Shown here: positions 1 to 57,031 of the stretch, piece by piece
Position numbering within the stretch: position 1 is the first letter of the stretch
Layout of the letters: the number at the start of each line of letters is the position of its first letter
Origin: Parvularia atlantis
Lineage: Eukaryota
Length of the DNA stretch: 64,000 bases
Assembly (NCBI GenBank): GCA_943704415.1
Contig: CALSCO010000113.1
Coordinates: 1-64,000, forward strand
Reading direction: 5' to 3'
The notes under the pieces: generated by a model
What the model was told of the DNA's origin: nothing
What the model saw: the letters and a program-made list of their open reading frames with translations, nothing else
Database searches by the model: none
Program-made: the position numbers and the translations under genes

Positions 1-987
1 ACCACCACCGTCGTCTGCGCTACGAGCGTCTCGTCGTTGATCGGCTGCTGCTCGAGCGTGCGCAGCCGCGCCACGAGCTGCTCGCGCTCACGTACAGCCT
101 GCACCGACTCGCCCGCCGGTGCCGCCTCCGCCGCCGCGCGTGCCCGCGCCAGGTGGTCCTGCGTCAGCACAAGCGCGTCCTTCTGCTCGAGCAGCGCCTT
201 GATGTCGGTCGTCCGCACCAGGTCAAACTCATGCTTGAGCTCGTGCTTGCGGCCCTTGAGCTCGTCCAGCTTGCGCTGCAGCGGCTCGATCAGCGGGTCG
301 AAGAAGCCGTCGACCGTGGCCAGGCCCGCGCGATTGAGCTCCTCGAGGCGCGCGATGTCGGCCTCGATCGCGTCGATGCCCGCCTTGACCTTCTGCTGCT
401 GCGGCTCGAGCGCGCTGCCGAGCGTGACGATGGCCGCGCGCTGCTTCTCGAGGCCCTTGGCGACGGGCACGAACGGATGATCGCGATGCGGCGCGGCGAT
501 GCAGTCGACGCAGGCGAGCTGGTCGCATCGGTTGCAGAACTGCGTCGCGCGGTTGGCCGGGTGCGCCTTGCACATCGGCACGCTCGTCGCCGCGCCGGGC
601 TTGGCCGTCACGACGTGCGTCCGGTTCACCTTGGCGCGCTGGTGCGCCTCGGCCTCTGTCGTGCACAGGTCGATCGCGCACGTCTCGCAGCGGTGCGTCG
701 CGGACGCCTCCTCGCACGACTGGCACATCGTCACCACCGCATCGGCCGTCGCAGCGGCGGGCTCGAGCAGGTCGGCGCGGCTGAACTCGGCGTGGCAATA
801 CGTCTGGCCGAGCAGGAACAGGCACTTGCGGCGTGCGTCGGTCGTCTTGCGCACGCACACTGCGCAGATCGGGTGCAGGCACGGCGTCCGTCCCGCGTCC
901 GCGTCCAGCGCATCCAGGGCAGAACGGGCAGAGATACGTTCTGCCCTCGAAACTCGATCTCGCCACACCTGTTTGTGCCGCAGCCAT
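1..987 (-). CDS. TRIM-like RING/B-box/coiled-coil protein (3' end beyond the window; 1-nt frameshift at 917-919)
   Basis: Minus-strand translation gives CPFC|LDALDADAGRTPCLHPICAVC (RING-like), then CQSCEEASATHRCETCAIDLC...H and CKAHPANRATQFCNRCDQLACVDCIAAPHRDH (two B-boxes), then a coiled coil. The RING is continuous only if one base of the GGG run at 917-919 is removed. Confidence 0.75.
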
Positions 988-1576
988 GCCTCTGTACGAG
1001 TGCATGACCATCGCGCGGACGTACATGAAGTCGGTGCGCGCCTCGTCGTCTCGTGGCCGCGCCGCCGCCTCACGCCCGCGTCGCACGTGCAGGGCGACCT
1101 GGTCGACCTGATCAAGAAGACGGCGTTCATCGTGCTCGACAACCGCGGCGTCGTGCGCAAGATTGAGCACCTGGGCGCGTCCAACCTGCCGTACCCGATG
1201 AAGGCGCACATGGACAGGTTCACAAACGGGCGGTGCGGAAGGCGCGCTCGCTCGGCCGTGCCGCCGTGCTGACGTCGCGAGCGGCAGACACCTGCTCATG
1301 TCGTTCGACGCGCGGCCGGCGATCGTCTCGGAGCTGAGTCGGCAGCTGAGCATCGACGACCGTGTGATCCACCACTTCATCGTCAAGCGGCCGCTGACGG
1401 AGCAGGCGCGTGCGCACCGCGGGCCCGCGGGCGCGCTGACGGCGTGCGCGCGCATGCAGCTCGGCAAGACACGCGGGCCAAGCCCTGTGCGCGTCAGCCT
1501 GGTCAACGAGGGCAAGGAGGAGCGCGTCGTCGAGTCGTTGCGGGATTTCTTTGAGGAGCAGACGCCACGCAAGTGA
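986..1576 (+). CDS. MRPS6: Mitochondrial ribosomal protein bS6m
   Basis: Spliced: MPLYECMTIARTYMKS|GDLVDLIKKTAFIVLDNRGVVRKIEHLGASNLPYPMKAH...R|HLLMSFDARPAIVSELSRQLSIDDRVIHHFIVK. Shows the typical S6 features MPLYE, GVVR..LG...LPY and DxRVI. Confidence 0.88.
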
Positions 1577-1685
1577 CGGCGCGCGCGCAGTTGTGGCACA
1601 GAACAGGCATAGCACACAGATGAAGAGAACACAAAACAAAGAACAAAGCGGATGTTGTCGTTCGTGATTCTGCGTTGCGCCGCGC

Positions 1686-2752
1686 TTACTCGGTCTTCTT
1701 CTGCATGCCCCTCTTGCCCTTAGCCATGTAGGTCGAATAGAAGAACTCGATGAAGAGGTAGAGGTAGCTCGACAGCAGCAGGCAGCCATACCAGCCGGCC
1801 ATCTTGTCGCCCTGGCAGTCGCCGTGGTGCGGCGCCCAGTCGTTGACGTGCGCGTAGGCCGTGTAGAGCGCGTAGTAGCAGGCGACGAGGTCGATCACAA
1901 ACTGCACAATCTGGATCGTCGTCACGTGCTGCTTCCACCAGATGTCGCGCACGCCGATGGCCGAGAGGTAGTAGTAGTAGTACTGTGCGTCGTTGGTGCG
2001 GCGCGTGAGCCACTCGCGCGCATGCGCACGGCCGCGCGCGCGCACCATGACCACGTGCACAAACACGTTGAGGATGATCGGCACCCATTGCTGCGGGACA
2101 GGGGGGCGCACTGCGTGAGCCGCGCGGTCGCGTCGCGGCCGAAAAGCGCGCGCACCACGGAGACCTCGCCGCGCAGCTGCGTGATGCACAGGATCATCGT
2201 GAGCGAGTGGTGGTAGACGTGCAGGAACTTGAGCTCTTTGCGGCTGAGCACGAGGAAGACCGTGTCGACGAGCTCCCAGTACTTGGACAGGTAGTTGAGG
2301 TAGTAGGCAAACTGCAAATGCCCGTCAAAGTAGCTCGCGCGGTTGCAGACGGCGTAGAACAGGCCGTGACGCAGGACCATGGGCACGACGAGCTCCGCGA
2401 GCAGCAGCAGGAGCACGAGCGATGCGAGCGTGAGCAGGAGGTTGTGCACGACAAAGGCCAGGTTGAGCAGCGACGTGTCCATCTTGGCCGCGGGGCGCTT
2501 CTTGCCCTCGCCAGTGCCGTTTTGCGCGCGCGGCGGCTTGTCCTCCCGTGACTGCGCAGGGAAGACGAGCTTGAGGCTGAAGATGACCGTGAGGTACACC
2601 GCGAGGCCGATGAAAGCCTCAGTCATCGTCGACAGCGGCGTCACGCCCGGCTGGAAGCGCCAGGCCCACGTGTGCTGGCCGGTCACGGCGTGGTACACGG
2701 CGTCGACTGCGAGGTTGGTCACCTGCCAGCTCTCGAAGCCCTCGGAGGCCAT
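1686..2752 (-). CDS. ELO/GNS1-SUR4 fatty acid elongase
   Basis: Motifs YLSKYWELVDTVF, FLHVYHH, NVFVHVVM|YYYY, TTIQIVQF, and a C-terminal KKTE ER-retrieval-type motif. Two introns. Confidence 0.95.
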
Positions 2753-3213
2753 CTCTGCCGCAGCGCGCACCGTGAGCGCACGTGCGAAGTGGCGTGATCT
2801 CGCGAGGGGCCACGCGCGGATTCGGCCGCGGCTGATAGCGGATCTGCCGCGCCCGCCACACGCCCCCCACTTCACCGAGCCCTCTCGCGCGCGCGCACGG
2901 CAGTCAGCAGAGGCGCGGAAGCGCGCACAGCAGAGCGCGGCGCAGCGTGCGAACGAAAGGAGCGCATGGCAAGGAAAGCTCTAGAATCCTGACAGATTCT
3001 GTTTTGGGCCGACCTTTTGCCTTGGGCTCGTTGGCGCGCGGTCCGTTCTCGTTCGCGCGACCGCACCGCACCGCAGCGCACCTCCCCGCGCCAACCGCAC
3101 AGCCGCGTCGACCACACGGTGCGCCGCGCACGTGCCGACCCGCCGTTCGCAGTGGCGTGAAACGCGTCGCAACTCCTGAGAAAAGGCCGGCGTGTCGGGC
3201 GCGCGTGTGTGCG

Positions 3214-45346: not shown

Positions 45347-47489
45347 ATGCCGACGATGCGCCCCGCGACGAGCGCGTTCCGCGTTGACGCGCCGGGCGTG
45401 GTGCGCCGCGCCGAATCCGCGTCGGTGGGGCGCTGACGTTTCGACCCGCCGCCGCCCGCCGCCGCCGCGCAGACCTACACCGCGGACGAGATCGTGGCGC
45501 AGTACCGCTACGACGCGACGGCCGTGCGCCGTGACGAGGCCACGGGCCAGTACGTCGTCACGCCGACCGAGACCGCGTTCGAGTTCCACACGAGCACGCG
45601 CGTGCCGCGCCTCGGGTGCGTCAACGCAGGTGCGGCACGGCACCGTCGCTCGTCTCACGCCACGCAACGGGGCCGAAAGGCTCATGCTCGTCGGCCTCGG
45701 CGGCAACAACGGCACGACGGTGACAGCGGGCGTGCTCGCGAACCGGCTGTGCGTCGCGCGACGGCCGTGCGCCGCGGTGTCGTTCTCACGCACTGGCACG
45801 CGCGCGCCAGCGGACTGTCGTGGCGCACGCGCTCGGGCCTGCAGAAGGCCAACTACTACGGCTCGCTCACGCAGGCCTCGACGCTGCACCTTGGCCGCGA
45901 CGCCGATGGGCACGACGTGCACGTGCCCTTCAGTCAGATCCTGCCGATGGTGCACCCGAACGACCTCGTCGTCGGCGGCTGGGACATCAGCGGCCTCGAC
46001 CTCGCCGCGGCGATGGAGCGCGCGCAGGTGCTCGAGCCGGACCTGCAGCGGCAGCTCGCGCCGACGATGCGCGCGATGGCGCCGTGGCCGTCGGTCTGCT
46101 ACCCGGACTTTATCGCCGCAAACCAAGCCGAGCGCGCCGACAACGTGCTGCCGGGCTCAAAGCGCGAGCACCTCGAGCGCGTGCGCAGCGACATACGGTT
46201 CGCGCGCGCGCGCGCGCGGTGGCGCGGGGCGATGGCGGCTGACATGACGCTCGGGCGCAGGCGCTTCAAGGGCGACAACGCGCTCGACGCAGTTGTCGTG
46301 CTCTGGACGGCCAACACCGAGCGCTTTGCCGAGCTCGTGCCGGGCGTGAACGACACCGCGGACAGGTGCGCGCGCACCGCACCGACGCCGTCAGCGGCCG
46401 ACTTGTGCCGACGCACGCACGTGCAGCCTACTCGCGGCCATTGAGCGCGGCGAACGCGAGATCGCCCCGTCGACCATCTTCGCCGTCGCGTGCATCCTCG
46501 AGGGCGTGCCGTTCATCAACGGGTCGCCGCAAAACACGTTTGTGCCGGGCTGCGTCGAGCTCGCGGAGCGGCACCAGGTGCGTGCCGCGCAGCCGCCGCC
46601 TCTGCACAGCTGACCTTGGCGAGCCAGTCGTTCATCGCCGGCGACGACTTCAAGAGCGGCCAGACCAAGATGAAGTCGGTGCTGGTCGACTTTCTCGTCG
46701 GCGCGGGCATCAAGCCGCTCTCGATCACGAGCTACAACCACCTGGGCAACAACGACGGGCGGGTGCGCGCGCGCGCGCGCGCGCGCATCTGACAGGAGCT
46801 CAGCGCTCGGCCGCACGCGCAGAACCTCTCGGCGCCGTCGCAGTTCCGCTCCAAGGAGATCTCGAAGAGCAACGTCGTCGACGACATGGTCGCGTCCAAC
46901 CCGATCCTGTACGGCCCCGGCGAGCACCCGGATCACGTCGTCGTAATCAAGTACGTGCCCGCGGTCGGCGACAGCAAGGTGTGATCCGCATGCGCGTGCA
47001 CGGCTCGCGCGCAACGCTCACATGCTGTGCACTCAGCGCGCCCTAGACGAGTACTACAACGAGATCTTCCTGGGCGGGCGCAACACGATCGCGATGCACA
47101 ACACGTGCGAGGACAGGTGCGTGCTCGCTTGCGCCGCGGCTAGCTCGCGCCTGACACACCGGGCACGCAGCCTGCTCGCCGCGCCGCTCATCATCGACCT
47201 CGCCATCCTCGCCGAGCTCTGCACGCGCATCCGCTACCGCCAGTTCCCGCACAAGCACGCCAACGCCAACGCCTACGCCAACGGCAACGGCCATATCGAC
47301 AGCGCGACCCTGCACGGCCTCTACCCGGTGCTCTCGGTCCTGTCGTACCTGCTCAAGGCGCCCAGGGTCCGCCGCGGCGCGCCCGTCGTCAACTCGCTGT
47401 TCAAGCAGCGCGCCGCGCTCGAGAACCTGTTCCGGGCGTGCGTGGGCCTGCCGCCGCAGAGCGACCTGCGGCTGGAGGAGCGTTTGTGA
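45347..47489 (+). CDS. INO1: Inositol-3-phosphate synthase
   Basis: [76 protein letters not shown]. Confidence 0.98.
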
Positions 47490-49311: not shown

Positions 49312-50454
49312 CTACCGTTTCGCTCGCTTCACCCGCTGATGCAGCAGCGCCAGCCGCGCGTCGCCACCAGCGCCGAGCCCCGCCGTGCTGCCCGCCGCGA
49401 GCCCGCGCGGCACAATCGGCTCGAGCAGCGCGTCGGCCGCGCGCGCCGGCGCACCGAGGGCCTCGCCGGGCCGCCAGCCCATGCGCCGCAGCAGTCGGTT
49501 GCCGACGTTGGCCTCGTCTAGCGGCACGTCGACCCCGCTCACCTCGTCCGGCCCACGCGCGGCCGCCGCGACCTCGTCCAGGTCCGTCCCGACGAGGCGA
49601 CGCCGCTCGGCCGCGCGGTCGCGGTACCCTGGCGGCGCGGGCGGCGCGGCCGCGGTGTCGCCGAGCAGCGTGCGCTTGAGCTGGCGCAGACCCTGGCGCC
49701 ACGGCACGGCGCCCTCGACAACGGGAGCAGCAGCACCAGAAGCAGCAGGCGCAGCCGTGTCGGGCAGGTGCAGCGACACGAAGCGTCGCCACAGACAGCC
49801 GTCGCACACCGGCTGCGCGGGCGGGTGCCAGTGCGCCTGCAGCGCCGTCGAGCCGATCTCGACGACGTCGCCGTGCGCCAGCAGCCGCGGCGGGGCGCCA
49901 CCACCGGTGTCGCGGCGGTCGGCGACGCCGAAGCGCGCCTCGTGCGGGTCGTAGAAGAAGCTCGCGTGCAGCTCGGCCACGTCGTCGTCGCCGTCAAGCA
50001 CGATGCGTGGACCAGCAGCCGCCGTCGCGGCCGGCGTCCGGCCCACGTCCGCGCCGAGGCTGCTGACGACGTACAGCGCGTTGGCCGGCACGGCGGATGC
50101 GCGCGTCGCCTGCACGACGAGCCGGAGCTGCGGCGGCCAGACGTCCGCGTCGACGCCGTGCCAGTCGGGCAGCAGCACGCCCGAGTCGGCATCACGCCAC
50201 AGGCCGTACGTCGCGTCGAAGACGGCGCGATCGCGCGCGTCCTCTGTCGTCGCTGCTGCTGCGTCCGCTGCTGTCGAAGCATCCGCAAACGGGTAGATGT
50301 ACGCGAGCTGCTCGTGGTCGAAGTAGAAGTAGGCGCCGGGCGCGTCCGGGTGGAAGCACCACTCGGTGCTCTGCGACTCCCAGAAGCCGCGCGCCTCGCT
50401 GTAGACAAAGTCGCTCGGCGCCGCGTGGTCGGGCTCATCGGCAGCAGCACTCAT
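49312..50454 (-). CDS. AGGF1-like OCRE/FHA/G-patch protein (intronless)
   Basis: Aromatic OCRE-like N-terminus. FHA-like segments VGRT, VAELHASFFY and LAHGDVVEIGST. Then CDGC, YRDRAAERR, and G-patch NVGNRLLRRMGWRPGEALG...AGLG. Confidence 0.85.
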   Translation of the reverse strand: MSAAADEPDHAAPSDFVYSEARGFWESQSTEWCFHPDAPGAYFYFDHEQLAYIYPFADASTAADAAAATTEDARDRAVFDATYGLWRDADSGVLLPDWHGVDADVWPPQLRLVVQATRASAVPANALYVVSSLGADVGRTPAATAAAGPRIVLDGDDDVAELHASFFYDPHEARFGVADRRDTGGGAPPRLLAHGDVVEIGSTALQAHWHPPAQPVCDGCLWRRFVSLHLPDTAAPAASGAAAPVVEGAVPWRQGLRQLKRTLLGDTAAAPPAPPGYRDRAAERRRLVGTDLDEVAAAARGPDEVSGVDVPLDEANVGNRLLRRMGWRPGEALGAPARAADALLEPIVPRGLAAGSTAGLGAGGDARLALLHQRVKRAKR

Positions 50455-50492
50455 CGGCAGCACGCATCGCAGCGGAAAGACAACTCAACTGG

Positions 50493-51074
50493 TCACAACT
50501 CCTCGTCTACGTCGTCCGCAGCTGCTGCTGCTACCGGTGCGGCCACAGCAGGGGCGGACGTCCCGACGAGGCCGTGCAGGTGCCGCCGCAGACGCTCCAA
50601 CACGACCTCGTTCTTGGCGCTGAACAGGAACGCGCCCTGCCCGCGCACGTCCAGCCGCAGGTGCACCGCCTGCCTCGGCTCGGCAGTTTTCTGCGGAGAC
50701 GCAGCTGTCAGGTGCTGCGCTTGTGAGCCCACGCCCGGCGCACCCGCTCTGTCGACGGCTTGCGGTACAGCACGCTGCCCAGCAGCTCGTCCATCTCGAT
50801 CTCGTCGTCCGGGAACACGCTGTTGTCGCGCTCGGCCGGGTCCACGACGGCGATTGGCAGCCTGCACGCGCGGTCAGCCGCGGCACTGCAGCGCAAGCGC
50901 AGCCGGCGACGTCACTGGAAGTCGATCAGCGCCAGGCCCGACAGGACCGTGAGCATGATCGCAAAGTACTCGGGGTCGCGCATGAGCGCGTCCGACGCGT
51001 ACAGCTGCGCGAGCGTGTACCGGTTGCCGCCCGCCGTGACTGGTGCGCCTGCAACACGTGCGCGCTCAGAGGCT

Positions 51075-51154
<80 letters not shown>

Positions 51155-53981
51155 GCACACACGCCCACAACGCGCACCTGCCATGGCCGCGGCGTGCAGG
51201 GCCTCGAGGCACTCGGTCAGCGTGTACATCGACGAGGACGTGGCGGGCGCGTGCCCGCTGCTCCGGTTGAGCGCGAGCCGGATCCACGCCTGGCACAGCA
51301 GCGAGTCGTCGCTCGGCAGGTCGAGCGACTGCAAGTACGCCGTGTCGTCCCTGATCACCCGGCGCGTCAGCACAAGCAGCGCGACGCTACTCGGCGCACT
51401 TGGGGATCATCGGCTTAAGCACGGCGTCCCAGAAGACCGCGCGCCGGGCCGCGCCGCGGAACAGCGAGAAGGCGTCCGGCGCCGTCCCAAAGCCGTGCTT
51501 GAGGCACAGCTCTATCCGCTCCGCGAGGTTCTCGACGGCTGCGCGCGCACATTGCCCGTCAGCGCCATCCGTCCGCGCACACAAGACGGCGCGCACCGGG
51601 TGTCAGTTCGCCCACCGTCACGAGCGACTTGCTGGCACGACTGGGCTCGCTGTCCGGCCCACCCGCCCGTACGGTCTTGGGGATGAGCCCGTGCAGCTTC
51701 TGCGCTCGGACGGCTCCATGAGATGCCGTGGCGCACAACGCAGCCCGCCCGCACCTGCACGGCCATCTGCAGCTCGTCGCACAGCATCTGCTTGACCTGC
51801 AGCTCGCTCACGATCGTGCGCGGGTTGCGCACGGGGTTCTGCGCGGGCCATCGCGTTGGCTGCGTGACGCGTGAGGGCCGACGGACAGTGACGCACCGGA
51901 TTGCGCTGCACCAGTGCCTGCGGCAACATGAGAGACGGGCTCTTGGCGTAGACGCTCTCCTGCGTCTTCAGCACGACGTATGCGCCATATGCCTGCTCCT
52001 CTTGGTTGATCTCGCGCAGCTCGCGGAAGCTGCGATGCGCGCGTGTGACTGCTGGTCCACGCACACGCACACAGCGCACCTTGTCAAGTCGCCCACGGCA
52101 AAGCTGAAGCGGAAGCGCCGCACGCCGTGCACTTTCACCAGCGGATCGCTCTTGAGCGGCTCGAAGTAGATGCTGTGCGCGGCGGAACGGTCAGGCGGGG
52201 CCGCGAACCGGCCGGACCGCGCACGCACCGGCTGTGCGTGAACACGAGCACGCCGCTTACGTCGCCGTACGCGCTCTGGCTCTTGACTAGCTCGCGCAGC
52301 TGCACCTGGCGTGCGGGCAGCGCATGAGCGGCTCAGCGGCGCGTGGCGAGCAACGAGACGCACGAGCGCAGTCGACGTGGACGAGCGCGAGGTCCGCGCT
52401 GGCCGTGTGGCGGGCGACGTCGCCGTTGGTAATGCGGCGCGGGGCGATGCGGGCGCGTCCTCGGGCTCGTCCGCAAAGTCGTCGTTGCCGAGCTCGTCGT
52501 CGCGCAGGTAGTCGGGCACGCGGTCCTGCACGATGAACGGCGACAGGTGGCGCTTGCCGAGCTCGTTCACCTGCCTGGCGCCCGCACCCCACAGCATGAG
52601 CGCTGGACGCACGTGCGCGCTCATTGTCATCACCTTGCCAGGTCGTCGTAGTCCTCCAGCGACGTGCACAGGAACCCAAGCAGCAGCGACGGGTCGATCT
52701 GGTTGTGGCGCAGACGCAGCGGCGCATGGTTTACCTGGAAGCTGCGTAGCTTGTCCTGCACGGCGCGTGTCAGCCGCCAGCCCTGGAACGCGCCCGCCGA
52801 CGAGACACGCACCATGCCGCACGCCTTGAGGTCGGGCAGCGGCACCATCGGCTGGGTCGTGTGCGGGTCCAGGTAGTAAAAGTGCTGCGCGTCGCTGCCG
52901 AAGAAGAACATGGCCTGGTGCGCCGTCTGGCCGTTGCGGTACCTCTGCAGGCCTGCGTCCCACAGGCGTGAGCAAGGCGCGCCGCGGCCAAGCCTCGCTC
53001 GCGCACACACGCACCGAGGTTGGACCCGATGCGCGCCGCGAGCAGGTTGCCCTGCTTGGCTCCGACAAAGCCCACAAACTGCCGCATGCGAAAGTACTCG
53101 CACATGGCTGGGATATACTCGGCGTTCAGCGTGAGGCCGAGGCGCAGCGGGATCAGGATAAGCAAGCCGCGCGCGTCGCCCGCCGCATCGACGAGCTTGG
53201 CGACCTCGGAGCGGTACACGGAGCCGTCGCGGCAGAGCAGCGCGCCCGTGTCGAACGGGTGGTGCTCCTGCATGAGCGACGCGACGACCTGCGCGCACGA
53301 CGTCGGGCTGTGCCACTGGCCGACGCTCGTCTTGTAAAACTCGCCTGTGATCGCCAGCTGGTGGATCGAGTAGGGCGCGCTCGGCGCGGGCGTGTCGTGA
53401 AACCACGAGAGCATGGTGCGGTACACGCCAAAGACCTCGGCCGCGTCGGTGTCATCGCCCATAACGAGCCCCGCCACGCTCTGCTTCATCTGCAGCAGGC
53501 GCTGCGCGTAGTGCGGCCCGAGCCGTCGCCGCAACAGCGCCTCGGCGAGCAGCATCTGCGCCGAGCGCAGGACGCAGCCCCACGACGTGTCGGCCTGACG
53601 CCGATGTCAGCGCGCACCCACGTCTGATATCGCTCTCACCGCGCGTACCGTTAGGTTCGTGTGCCCGATCGGCGCGAAGCCCGAGCGGTAGCTCAGCCAC
53701 GGCCGCTGGCCGTACTCGGTCAGGAACGCCGTCGCGGCGGCGCGCTGCGCCTCGGTCCACGCCGCGCTGCCGCCTGCGCCGCCGCTTCCGCTCCCGCCTA
53801 ATCCACCGGCACCGCCGAGCAGCGTCGACGACGCGGCCTGGAAGAGCGCGAACGCGGGCGATGCGGCCGGCGCGACGAGCGTCGTGGGTGGCGTGGCCGG
53901 CGCCACGCCCAGCAGCGCTTCAGGCGGCACGTCGGCGCAAACGCGCCCTCCCGCGAAGTGCACCGTGCTGAGCGGCACCAT
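50493..53981 (-). CDS. ATG4: Atg4 cysteine protease with a C-terminal GRAM/PH-like and RUN domain extension; start uncertain
   Basis: Atg4: WLSYRSGF, DTSWGCVLRSAQMLLA, PYSIH, LIPLRLG, YLDPH, IDPSLLLGF. Phase-consistent splicing leads on to GVLVFTHSR|IYFEPLKSDPLV (OXR1-type GRAM-like) and to RUN (IELCLKHGF, FWD, AWIRLALN, YASDALMRD...LSGLALIDF). Confidence 0.8.
51078..51150 (+). repeat. (CA)n microsatellite, about 36 units, inside an intron
   Basis: Perfect CA run. Confidence 0.97.
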
Positions 53982-54027: not shown

Positions 54028-54642
54028 ATGGCGGCGAACCTTTTGATGTCGCGCCTCGTTCGTTCTCCTCGAGCGCGGCCTCGCTGTGCACGTCGGCCAC
54101 AAGCACCCGGTGTTCCCGGCGTTGACCGCGACGGTCGCCGATCGAGCGGACGCGACGGGCGAAGCGCTCTCCGCTCAGTGCGCCGACGCCGCACCGAGCG
54201 CCGCACCGAGCGCCGCACCCAGCACCTCGGTCGTCGACGGCGGCGTGGCGTGCTCGGTCTGCGGGCAGACGTTCGTCAGCAAGTTAGGTGCAGCAATTCA
54301 CATGGGCCGCGTGCATCGTCGACCGGGTGCGGCGCCGCAGCCTGCCCGCGCAGGTCGTGTTTGCGCCTGTCGTGCAGCCTGCGCCCGCGCTGCTTAGTGC
54401 CGCCATCGAGCGCATCCGCTTCGCCGTCAAGGATACGCTGCTGCGCTTCGCTCGGCCGCAGCAGGGCAACCGCGTGCGCGAGCGTGCTGGTCGCGCGCAG
54501 CTACGCCCGCGGCATGTTCACCATGTCGTTCTGCGCAACCTGCACCTCGTCGCGCACGGTGACCGCGCCCGCACCCGTGCCCGCTGCGCCTGAGCCCGCA
54601 CCCGCCGCGCCCGCGCCCCAACCGCCTAGTGTTTCTGCATGA
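54028..54642 (+). pseudogene. Disrupted C2H2 zinc-finger ORF, probably transposon-borne
   Basis: CSVCGQTFVSKLGAAIHMGRVH in ORF 54086-54397. Coding-like text continues in other frames to TGA at 54640-54642. Confidence 0.45.
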
Positions 54643-54643
54643 A

Positions 54644-56140
54644 CTACTTGGACTTGAACACAACATGATGGACGCGGTTGGTGAGGAGGGGAGGGGGTCT
54701 GTACAGGGAGCGGTTCTCCTTCTCCATCGTCGTCAGCACGGCCGACTTGCGAAGGGAACCGCCCCCGTGTGTGGTGTGGGTAAAGTAGAACGAAGCGTGT
54801 TGATGATTCTTCTTCTCAACGGGCTCGGTTGAGAGGTGGCTCAGCGGCACACCGAGCTTGGCGCACGTGCGCAAATGGTCACCGAGATGGGCGATCAGGG
54901 CATGGAGGTACGGTGTCACCGGCACAGGCGCGCCGGCGATGACTTTGTCCGTGTCCTCCATGCGGGCGGGAGCATCTTGGTCAACAGCCGGCATGGGCTG
55001 ACCGAAGACGAGATCAACGACGTGGAGGTGTGTGCACATTCGCGCATGCGGCTGAGCGCGTGCCTCACCCGTGCGCTGCATCAGAACTCTGCACGTGCCT
55101 TCCTGCGCGGCCTCGCGACGTCGGGCAGTGACCCTGGCCGCCCGTACGCGCGCGAATTGGGACACGTTCATCGTCGTTTATGACGCGGCCAAGTCCAGCT
55201 TCTGCAGCAGCGCGTACTTGGCCGGCCGGCGCAGGCTCGTCCAGTTCAGAGATCCTGTGAGACGTCAGTGCACGTGCGCGTGAATGCGTGAGCGCACCGG
55301 ACGCCGTGCCCGTCGCCTCGTCACGCGACGCCCAAAAGTTGATGGTCACACCGACATCGGCAGCGGCGGTGGTGAGGGCGGCAACTGCGGTCGCGTGGCA
55401 TGTGCGCGAACGCGTGGCGGACATGGTTGTAGTCCTTGCCGCACGCGAGCAGGGCGACGGGCAGCTGCGCGTCGGGCGTGCGGTTCATGTCGGTCCCGGT
55501 CACGATCGCGACAGTGACCATCGTGTGGGTGACCGAGCCCACGCGGCGGCCGTCGCCCGAAAACTACCCGGCGAGGTATGAGTGCACGCACAGGTCATGC
55601 GCGCGCGCACTTTCAGCAGGGGGCGCGTCGGCTTGGGTACCATGCCCCGCAGCACGTGCGTCAGCAACGGGCGCAGCGGGCGGCGCCAGGCGTCGTTTAG
55701 GCCCTCCACGCGCTATATCGGCACCGCGCGCCATCTCCTCCGTCTCGCCGCTTGCGCTCCTCGGCCACTGCGTCGCACGCGATGTTCAGCAGCGAGCAGA
55801 GTGCCGCACGCTTGTGCACCCCGATACTCGCGCGCCATTTCAGGCGTGAGCGCGGCCAGGGCGCGGTACGCGTCGCGGCTGCAGCCTGTGCTGTCCAGCA
55901 CGTGGACGGCCTTGGCGAGGCGGGCACGGGCCTCCTTGTTCTGCAAGCGTGTCTCAGAGACCAGCGCGACCAGAGCGCGCGCACGCACCGGCATGTCGTT
56001 CGGGCCAAGCGAGTGGTCGTCGTCGAACGTCATGCGCACGCGCTCGCCGGCAAAGTTGGCGTCGATGCCCAGCAGCGTGGCGTCGTCCACGGCATTGCGC
56101 TTGCAGGACTCGTTGAATGCCGCACGTGCGTCGCTGGTCA
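54644..56140 (-). pseudogene. Degenerate RAG1/Transib-like DDE transposase
   Basis: Fragments across frames: LDSTGCSRDAYRALAAL, FSGDGRRVG...MVTVAIV (first Asp), INFW, NWTSL...LLQKL, and VTPYLHALIAHL...LSTEPVEKKNH...TTHGG (resembles RAG1 TNYFHKTLAH...SEGNE). Has in-frame stops, frameshifts and an apparent deletion of the central Asp/CxxC region. Confidence 0.6.
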
Positions 56141-56945
56141 CAGAGCGCCGCACGCCCCACACGTCTTGGACGTGTACTCCTCCGTGCATGTAATCACCTC
56201 ACACCGCGGGTGCTCGCGCGACTTGTGTAGCAGCAGCATCCAAAACGTGTAGTGGGAGAGCGTGAGCAGGCGCCGCGCCGTCTTGCTCCGGATCCGCCGC
56301 GCCCCGCGCCGGACCATCTGCTGCGTCTCGAACCGCGGCAGCAGCACCACGCGGTAGTTGCGGCACAGCCACAGGGCCAGCTTGCGGTGCATCTCGTCGA
56401 CCAGGTTGCGAATCCGCTGCAGAAGGCGCCGGCCCGCGCGACGCAGTCGGTACCGCCGCCGCTTGCGCGTCTCGCGCGCATCCATCTTGCCCTGCAACTT
56501 GTCGTACGCGCGGCACAGACGGTACACCCGCCCGATGTCGCCTGGCCCCACTCGACCACGCGCCCGTCCGCGTCGTAGCCCGTCATGAACGTGCGCACGC
56601 CCAGGTCCAGCGCAATCACGCCGTGCAGTCGGCCCGGAAGACCAGCGGTTGCGGCATGCACAGGTACTGTGCGCACCAACCGCGCGTCGCACGCCTTCTT
56701 CTGGCCGTGGCTGGGGAAGACGCGCAGCTTGAGCGTCTTGAGCGGCTGCGCAGCCTCGTCCACGTCGTCGTCAGGGTTCGGCTCGTCCGCGTGCGGCTCA
56801 GACGGCGTTGTCGGCGTCTTCTTGGTGCGGCGACGCTTCTTGTGCGGCGGCTGTTGCGTCTGCACGGCGGCGGCGGCGTGGCCGTTCTGGCGCGCCACAG
56901 AGTGCGTGACGACGGCGAGGAGGTCGTGCAGTGCGTGGATGGGAC
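56138..56945 (-). pseudogene. IS607-derived Fanzor2/TnpB nuclease remnant preceded by the C-terminus of a serine-recombinase TnpA
   Basis: DLLAVVTHSVARQNG (IS607 TnpA C-terminal helix), KTLKLRVFP, RuvC-I ALDLGVRTFMTGYD, bridge helix RIRNLVDEMHRKLALWLC, LPRFETQQMV, LSHYTF, TEEYTSKTCGACG. Frameshift at about 56545. Truncated before RuvC-III. Confidence 0.88.
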
Positions 56946-57031
56946 TGGCTGTTTGCCGGCTGCGAGGGCCCGGCGGGCACGCTTACATAGGGCGGCCGGA
57001 AGTTGGATGCGCTAACGTCAGCGGGAACACT

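Follow-up and report, generated by a model that had tools for sequence, protein, structure and literature searches.

We identified in the genome of Parvularia atlantis a gene that encodes an Atg4 protease fused to a RUN domain, and our results demonstrate that this fusion is real: it is one gene, read in a single spliced frame. All positions given here are those of the window, that is, the whole stretch of 64,000 nt that was analysed. By domain and triad, the protein belongs to the Atg4 (peptidase C54) family, and it is no canonical stand-alone enzyme of that family. In two species, P. atlantis and a metagenomic relative, a polypeptide that combines an intact C54 domain with a RUN domain is under selection.

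Gene structure and transcript evidence

The Atg4-fusion gene occupies positions 50493..53981 on the minus strand, with its start ATG at 53981 and its stop at 50493-50495, in agreement with the coordinates originally predicted. The model, built from the joints of an RNA contig and translation by coordinates, consists of 15 exons encoding 878 aa. All exons lie on the minus strand: exons 1-5 at 53981-53649, 53594-53015, 52952-52813, 52755-52634 and 52574-52364; exons 6-10 at 52305-52229, 52172-52080, 52029-51897, 51838-51755 and 51699-51597; and exons 11-15 at 51538-51400, 51350-51178, 51048-50916, 50861-50744 and 50690-50493. Translation of the 15 exons gave a frame with zero internal stops, and GC3 was of the coding type (0.84-0.98) in every region except the last 21 aa.

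Three sequencing runs matched the window, namely X1 (share 0.56), X3 (0.98) and X2 (0.10). X1 contains a single 2,640-nt minus-strand contig, extending from about 53744 to 50253, whose pieces fall in the protease core, the linker, the RUN domain and the tail. From the Atg4 core to past the stop, this contig is joined across every one of the 14 GT-AG introns. Thirteen of the 14 rows in the X1 joint table are CT..AC, corresponding to GT-AG on the minus strand, and all 13 derive from the 2,640-nt contig; the remaining row is a chance match of 20 nt in a different contig. The 14th intron, which bears a (CA)n repeat, is absent from the joint table because of the repeat filter, and it is also spliced, positions 1952 and 1953 of the X1 record being adjacent across it. 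Intron sizes are 49-62 nt in 13 cases and 129 nt in one, intron 12 (51049..51177, minus strand), which has the (CA)n microsatellite inside. The microsatellite itself (51068-51169) reads open in frame and contaminates protein searches.

The RNA type of X1 was initially a guess; its contig is spliced, and X1 is therefore RNA-derived. Transcript support comes from a single run, as one contig assembled from short reads. This contig does not cover the first 237 nt of the CDS, and the start codon was placed by alignment to the Met of the relative described below. At its other end the contig extends 240 nt beyond the stop, into the next gene, and contigs here can therefore overlap neighbours. The DNA-like run X3, from which the window itself may derive, gave one unspliced contig across 51170-54099. 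In X2, whose share is small, the pieces were short and unspliced, and the run was left out of the analysis.

The original prediction that no stop follows the Atg4 core, and that GT-AG introns keep phase into the RUN domain, is borne out by the X1 joints and the 878-aa open frame. An early transcript end near 52300-52500 was looked for, and the X1 contig was found to be spliced in frame through that stretch. An in-frame Met is absent between aa 352 and 552, so that the GRAM-like part that follows the protease has no start of its own. Being spliced, in frame and devoid of Met across aa 352-552, the Atg4-RUN junction is unlike a join of neighbouring transcripts.

Retention of most introns of this gene would lead to an early in-frame stop. 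In intron 4, two in-frame stops stand at its very start (52630-52633), directly after C54, and retention would yield a stand-alone Atg4 with its stop at aa 393. Retention of intron 4 was not seen in the sole RNA contig covering the gene, from which the intron is spliced out.

Conservation of the fusion in a metagenomic relative

A metagenome scan yielded at least one relative among the matches listed (595 stretches), designated L001, with 62% identity on exon 2 and a GC content of 54.6%, compared with about 70% for the window. By tblastn, the protease, the linker, the GRAM-like part, the RUN domain and the tail are colinear in L001 4210-7283. The L001 model, made without RNA, comprises 884 aa with 10 GT-AG introns chosen by eye, eight of which share alignment column and phase with introns of the window gene. 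Identity between the two proteins amounts to 222/325 in C54, 16/44 (36%) in the linker (aa 419-462), 51/83 (61%) in the N-terminal PH-like piece, 36/75 in the pre-RUN segment, 81/160 (51%) in the RUN domain, 12/35 in the post-RUN segment, 21/42 (50%) in the C-terminal PH-like piece (aa 816-857) and 4/21 (19%) in the tail. The L001 frame is broken within C54 by one extra base in a C-run at about 4990, which was read as X; both sides of the break are highly conserved, and it is therefore likely an assembly error. As in the window gene, a separate start or stop between the parts of the fusion is absent from L001.

Searches for further relatives were made with single-exon queries, which are weak for distant relatives, and a third orthologue of the fusion was not found. 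Exon 2 against longer proteins gave three matches of 7,994 scored, each to C54 only, and the RUN alignment search gave none among 5,427 candidates. The RUN frame including the (CA)n intron was discarded as a query, since its matches were repeat-driven junk. When the mid exon of L001 was searched by phmmer in 1.84 billion representatives, two matches came back: a fragment of L001 itself and a repeat protein that is unrelated. Viral and prokaryotic contigs contained no relatives; in the Atlas, the mid exon had no usable match and the protease part led to C54 and C54+ATG4_LIR clusters only. Exact look-ups of nine frames gave 0 matches in the sequence collection, and no second Atg4 was found within the 64,000-nt window. 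The open literature, searched by title and abstract, yielded no ATG4-RUN fusion. The ATG4 passages of a review of protist autophagy contain none either (PMC10104450), and in the part of PMC4742741 that bears on it the GRAM domain is merely named.

Protease, RUN domain and flanking pieces

The peptidase C54 (Atg4) catalytic domain spans approximately aa 85-391 and is encoded by exons 1-4 (52634..53729, minus strand), as judged from Pfam PF03416 and PDB matches. PF03416 matched exon 2 with an E-value of 5e-36 (125 bits), exons 3-4 with 3e-15 (57 bits) and exon 1 with 0.2, the cut-off being 25 bits, and profile positions 3-273 of 276 were covered in three pieces. The PDB sequence matches for the protease were exclusively human ATG4B/ATG4A (5/5). 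Catalytic Cys118 (53574..53576, minus strand) lies in a WGC motif that aligns with that of ATG4B and is present in L001, and catalytic Asp333 and His335 (52861..52869, minus strand) were placed by alignment in a DPH motif, also found in L001. The triad C118, D333 and H335, as described for Atg4 (PMC5799747), is intact in both proteins, and the equivalent of the lid Trp is, by alignment, W205. With PF03416 above its gathering score, the triad complete and the PDB matches pointing to ATG4B/ATG4A, the predicted Atg4 core stands, and at the level of sequence the protease is assigned to C54.

A 23-residue insertion, aa 292-314, is located at the regulatory loop across intron 2 (52924..53054, minus strand), as seen from the alignment and the RNA joint. 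The position of the loop was set by alignment, using the residue numbers of the loop. The insertion is missing from all three canonical Atg4s aligned and is a new feature in the protease. The joint of intron 2 is present in the RNA contig, and the insertion is therefore not a gene-model error. Residues 286-320, which hold it, are identical at 33 of 35 positions between the window protein and L001; against a background of 68% identity the binomial chance is 2e-4, for a stretch that was picked after inspection. In sliding windows, 23/24 positions were conserved in the loop insert versus 24/24 at the active site. An amphipathic membrane helix in the insert is not supported, the hydrophobic moment being modest (0.14-0.44). 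In Atg4, the catalytic Cys lies beneath the regulatory loop together with Trp142 (PMC5799747).

Exon 5 (52364..52574, minus strand; X1 record 940-1153) encodes the end of an Atg4-like tail followed by an acidic, Ser/Thr/Pro-rich linker, together aa 392-462. A simple pattern search of the linker and the tail did not find a canonical C-terminal LIR. The linker leads into a putative GRAM/PH-like N-terminal part, approximately aa 463-545, in exons 6-8 (51950..52305, minus strand), which is conserved in L001 and whose exons 6-7 presumably resemble the OXR1/NCOA7 GRAM segment, although none of the searches returned an OXR1/NCOA7 sequence. Searched as single exons of 25-44 aa, this part had no Pfam, NCBIfam or related PDB match.

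The RUN domain follows at approximately aa 572-774 in exons 9-13 (50916..51838, minus strand), placed by Pfam, a PDB profile and a structural model. The Pfam RUN family (PF02759) scored 25.7 bits in the window protein and 23.2 bits in L001 against a cut-off of 22, with exons scanned separately and the matches falling on the C-terminal blocks. A profile of these blocks gave four PDB matches, all to RUN proteins (PLEKHM1, PLEKHM2 and RUFY3 twice) and weak (E 0.05-0.5). RUN membership is confirmed by these family scores, as a sequence assignment. Of the full RUN domain that had been predicted, the C-terminal blocks are thus recognized above the cut-off in both species, while the N-terminal blocks had no match in the searches and were assigned by eye. 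The mid exon of L001 was modelled with low confidence (mean pLDDT 57); strands are absent from the model, and its single confident helix (52-73) may be the first of the RUN domain. A Pfam Thermo-DBP match on the same exon was below the cut-off and was set aside.

Beyond the RUN domain, residues 822-856 (50562..50666, minus strand) are predicted to form a hairpin plus helix, which, from AF2 and VIA-align, likely corresponds to the end of a PH fold, namely its final two strands and its helix. AF2 modelled the L001 tail exon with strands at 61-67 and 71-77 and a helix at 80-94 (pLDDT 64-71, mean 54). VIA-align of this model gave Z-scores of at most 3.4, a level that the tool calls common; among 50 rows, 11 are PH and three FERM by title, and seven more are, we assume, PH folds. 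The PH matches fall mostly at their last strands and helix, near their C-terminal ends, and the joined split PH of alpha-syntrophin is among the rows. PH folds make up eight of the top 11 rows (five by title, one FERM and two with other titles), with non-PH rows tying with PH rows. Foldseek gave no match at E<=0.001 for the L001 mid-exon and tail models, comparing the profiles of the tail and exon 8 found nothing, and the PH/GRAM-like single exons (25-65 aa) had no family matches and unrelated PDB rows. The predicted hairpin-plus-helix and the PH-rich rows favour the reading of the tail as the end of a PH fold, while the low Z-scores and the blank Foldseek search do not. Overall, the tail model is suggestive of a split PH/GRAM domain, and the two pieces flanking the RUN domain likely form one domain of this type around it.

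Proposed role, alternatives and genomic surroundings

In our assessment, the protein is probably a membrane-docked Atg8 de-lipidase with an altered lid that gates or tunes its activity. A docked de-lipidase is the most likely role because an address is not required to prime soluble pro-Atg8, while delipidation has to be spatially confined. Spatial regulation is indeed required for delipidation by Atg4 (PMC5799747), and delipidation on single membranes varies between ATG4 isoforms (PMC8122138).

The C-terminal module, made up of the RUN domain and the PH/GRAM-type pieces, would bring the protease to a specific organelle membrane, on which the enzyme would remove Atg8 from lipid. The two pieces flanking the RUN domain may close into one PH/GRAM fold, in the way that split PH domains with inserted domains act as supramodules (PMC3216653). 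The RUN domain would bind a small GTPase (of the Rab, Rap or Arl8 type) or a motor; RUN domains are known to bind Rab and Rap GTPases and motors, and their sequence features alone do not identify the partner (PMC7431699). The PH/GRAM part could bind a lipid or a Rab. OXR1/NCOA7 bind GTP-Rabs, and perhaps phosphoinositides too, via their LysM-to-TLDc region, which holds the GRAM domain (PMC12146697), and the GRAM domain of C. elegans LMD-3 is dispensable in the assays reported in PMC12652258. Together, the RUN and PH/GRAM parts might allow endolysosomal, phagosomal or autophagosomal membranes to be recognized by coincidence detection. The 23-residue insert may alter the active-site lid; it would either gate the enzyme until docking has taken place or touch the lipid head group. 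A more specific version, in which a RUN-in-PH supramodule that reads a small GTPase plus a lipid is coupled to a conserved new lid, giving a lineage of microbial eukaryotes a site-gated enzyme dedicated to Atg8 de-lipidation (at phagosomes or lysosomes, for instance), is put forward as a tentative possibility.

It is unlikely that the tail of the fusion serves mainly for autoinhibition (closing the active site via the loop insert) or as a transport or scaffold device (linking Atg8-marked vesicles to a motor) instead of targeting delipidation to a membrane. The near-equal conservation of the loop insert and the active site suggests a fixed partner surface, the split PH plus insert of PLC-gamma is autoinhibitory (PMC3216653), and RUN domains also bind kinesin (PMC7431699); however, the protease and the tail module are separated by a poorly conserved linker of 60-70 residues, and an autoinhibitory tail would be compatible with targeting. 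We regard it as quite unlikely that the PH/GRAM label is wrong, with another fold around the RUN domain or a complete PH domain before it and a separate small tail element. Although neither piece has a significant family or fold match, a hairpin followed by a helix occurs commonly and the PH rows of VIA-align are tied with non-PH ones, the pre-RUN segment is modelled as a lone confident helix with no strands, which suits the first RUN helix better than the end of a PH domain, and PH folds supply most of the top rows.

A highly improbable alternative is that there are two genes, or that a short stand-alone Atg4 is the main product and the long form reflects an assembly join or rare read-through. 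Retention of intron 4 would end the protein just after C54, and contigs may fuse neighbouring transcripts, the X1 contig overlapping the next gene; yet intron 4 is spliced in the sole RNA contig, the junction is in frame with no internal Met at aa 352-552, L001 likewise lacks a separate start or stop, and early in-frame stops on retention are typical of most introns in this gene.

Compared with Atg4/ATG4A-D (C54, PF03416), the window protein is alike in its full catalytic domain, the Cys-Asp-His triad, the lid Trp and the Atg4-like segment after the core. It differs in some 480 extra C-terminal residues comprising the RUN domain and the PH-like pieces, in the 23-residue loop insert, in a change of the loop GG to GA and, as judged by pattern, in having no canonical C-terminal LIR. 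PLEKHM proteins have roles in endolysosomal traffic and autophagy. The RUN domain is common to PLEKHM1, PLEKHM2/SKIP, RUFY3 and Rubicon; these adaptors are non-catalytic and carry an N-terminal RUN domain, whereas that of the window protein lies near the C-terminus, with PH-like flanks and fused to a protease. In contrast to OXR1/NCOA7, the window protein has neither LysM nor TLDc, and its likeness to their GRAM segment is presumed. RUN proteins have been linked to endolysosomal traffic and autophagy (PMC7431699). As in the PH domains that are split in PLC-gamma, syntrophin, ROCK, Vps36, PIKE and myosin X, the predicted PH halves surround an inserted domain, and in PIKE the split lies at the beta5/beta6 loop (PMC3216653), as is proposed for the window protein. 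A RUN insert is listed for none of the six split PH proteins in the part of that source that treats them (PMC3216653), and the fold of the window protein is a predicted one.

A docked de-lipidase of this kind would share its design logic with Legionella RavZ, which deconjugates Atg8, has a PI3P-binding domain of its own and carries a lipid-binding loop inserted in its catalytic domain (PMC5799747). RavZ differs in being bacterial, in its unrelated clan CE fold and in its irreversible cleavage. What keeps Atg4 from removing Atg8 at a wrong membrane is regarded as an open question (PMC5799747). A natural Atg4 with domains in the style of membrane or GTPase targeting, present in two diverged species, hints at which signals solve the siting of Atg4, and the fusion offers a single polypeptide for testing its spatial control. 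The conserved loop insert provides a handle on Atg4 autoinhibition, and if the predicted fold holds, a RUN domain within a PH domain would enlarge the range of split PH supramodules by a new type. If the protein is a de-lipidase addressed by its RUN-in-PH module, a eukaryote would possess a natural equivalent of the RavZ design, and the protein could serve directly as a model of Atg4 siting.

The gene order is common to the window and L001: the Atg4-fusion gene, a G-patch gene and then a gene (45470-47486 in the window, 9156-11087 in L001) that we take to be inositol-3-phosphate-synthase-like. The window has two more genes, one alpha/beta-hydrolase-like and one small, between the latter two. 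The G-patch gene (49312-50469, minus strand) is intronless and begins about 25 nt past the stop of the Atg4-fusion gene; its L001 orthologue encodes an FHA domain plus a G-patch. Just upstream of the Atg4-fusion gene, at 54200-57000, lies a multi-copy element, with an X3 depth of about 640-3,000 over 54208-55500 compared with about 250. Within this element, the frame 56141-56770 (minus strand) matched RNA-guided TnpB below the cut-off (NF040570, E 4e-9) and a Cas12f1-like TNB (E 0.002); it appears to be a Fanzor/TnpB-like gene whose N-terminal part is seemingly in another frame, 56197-56982.
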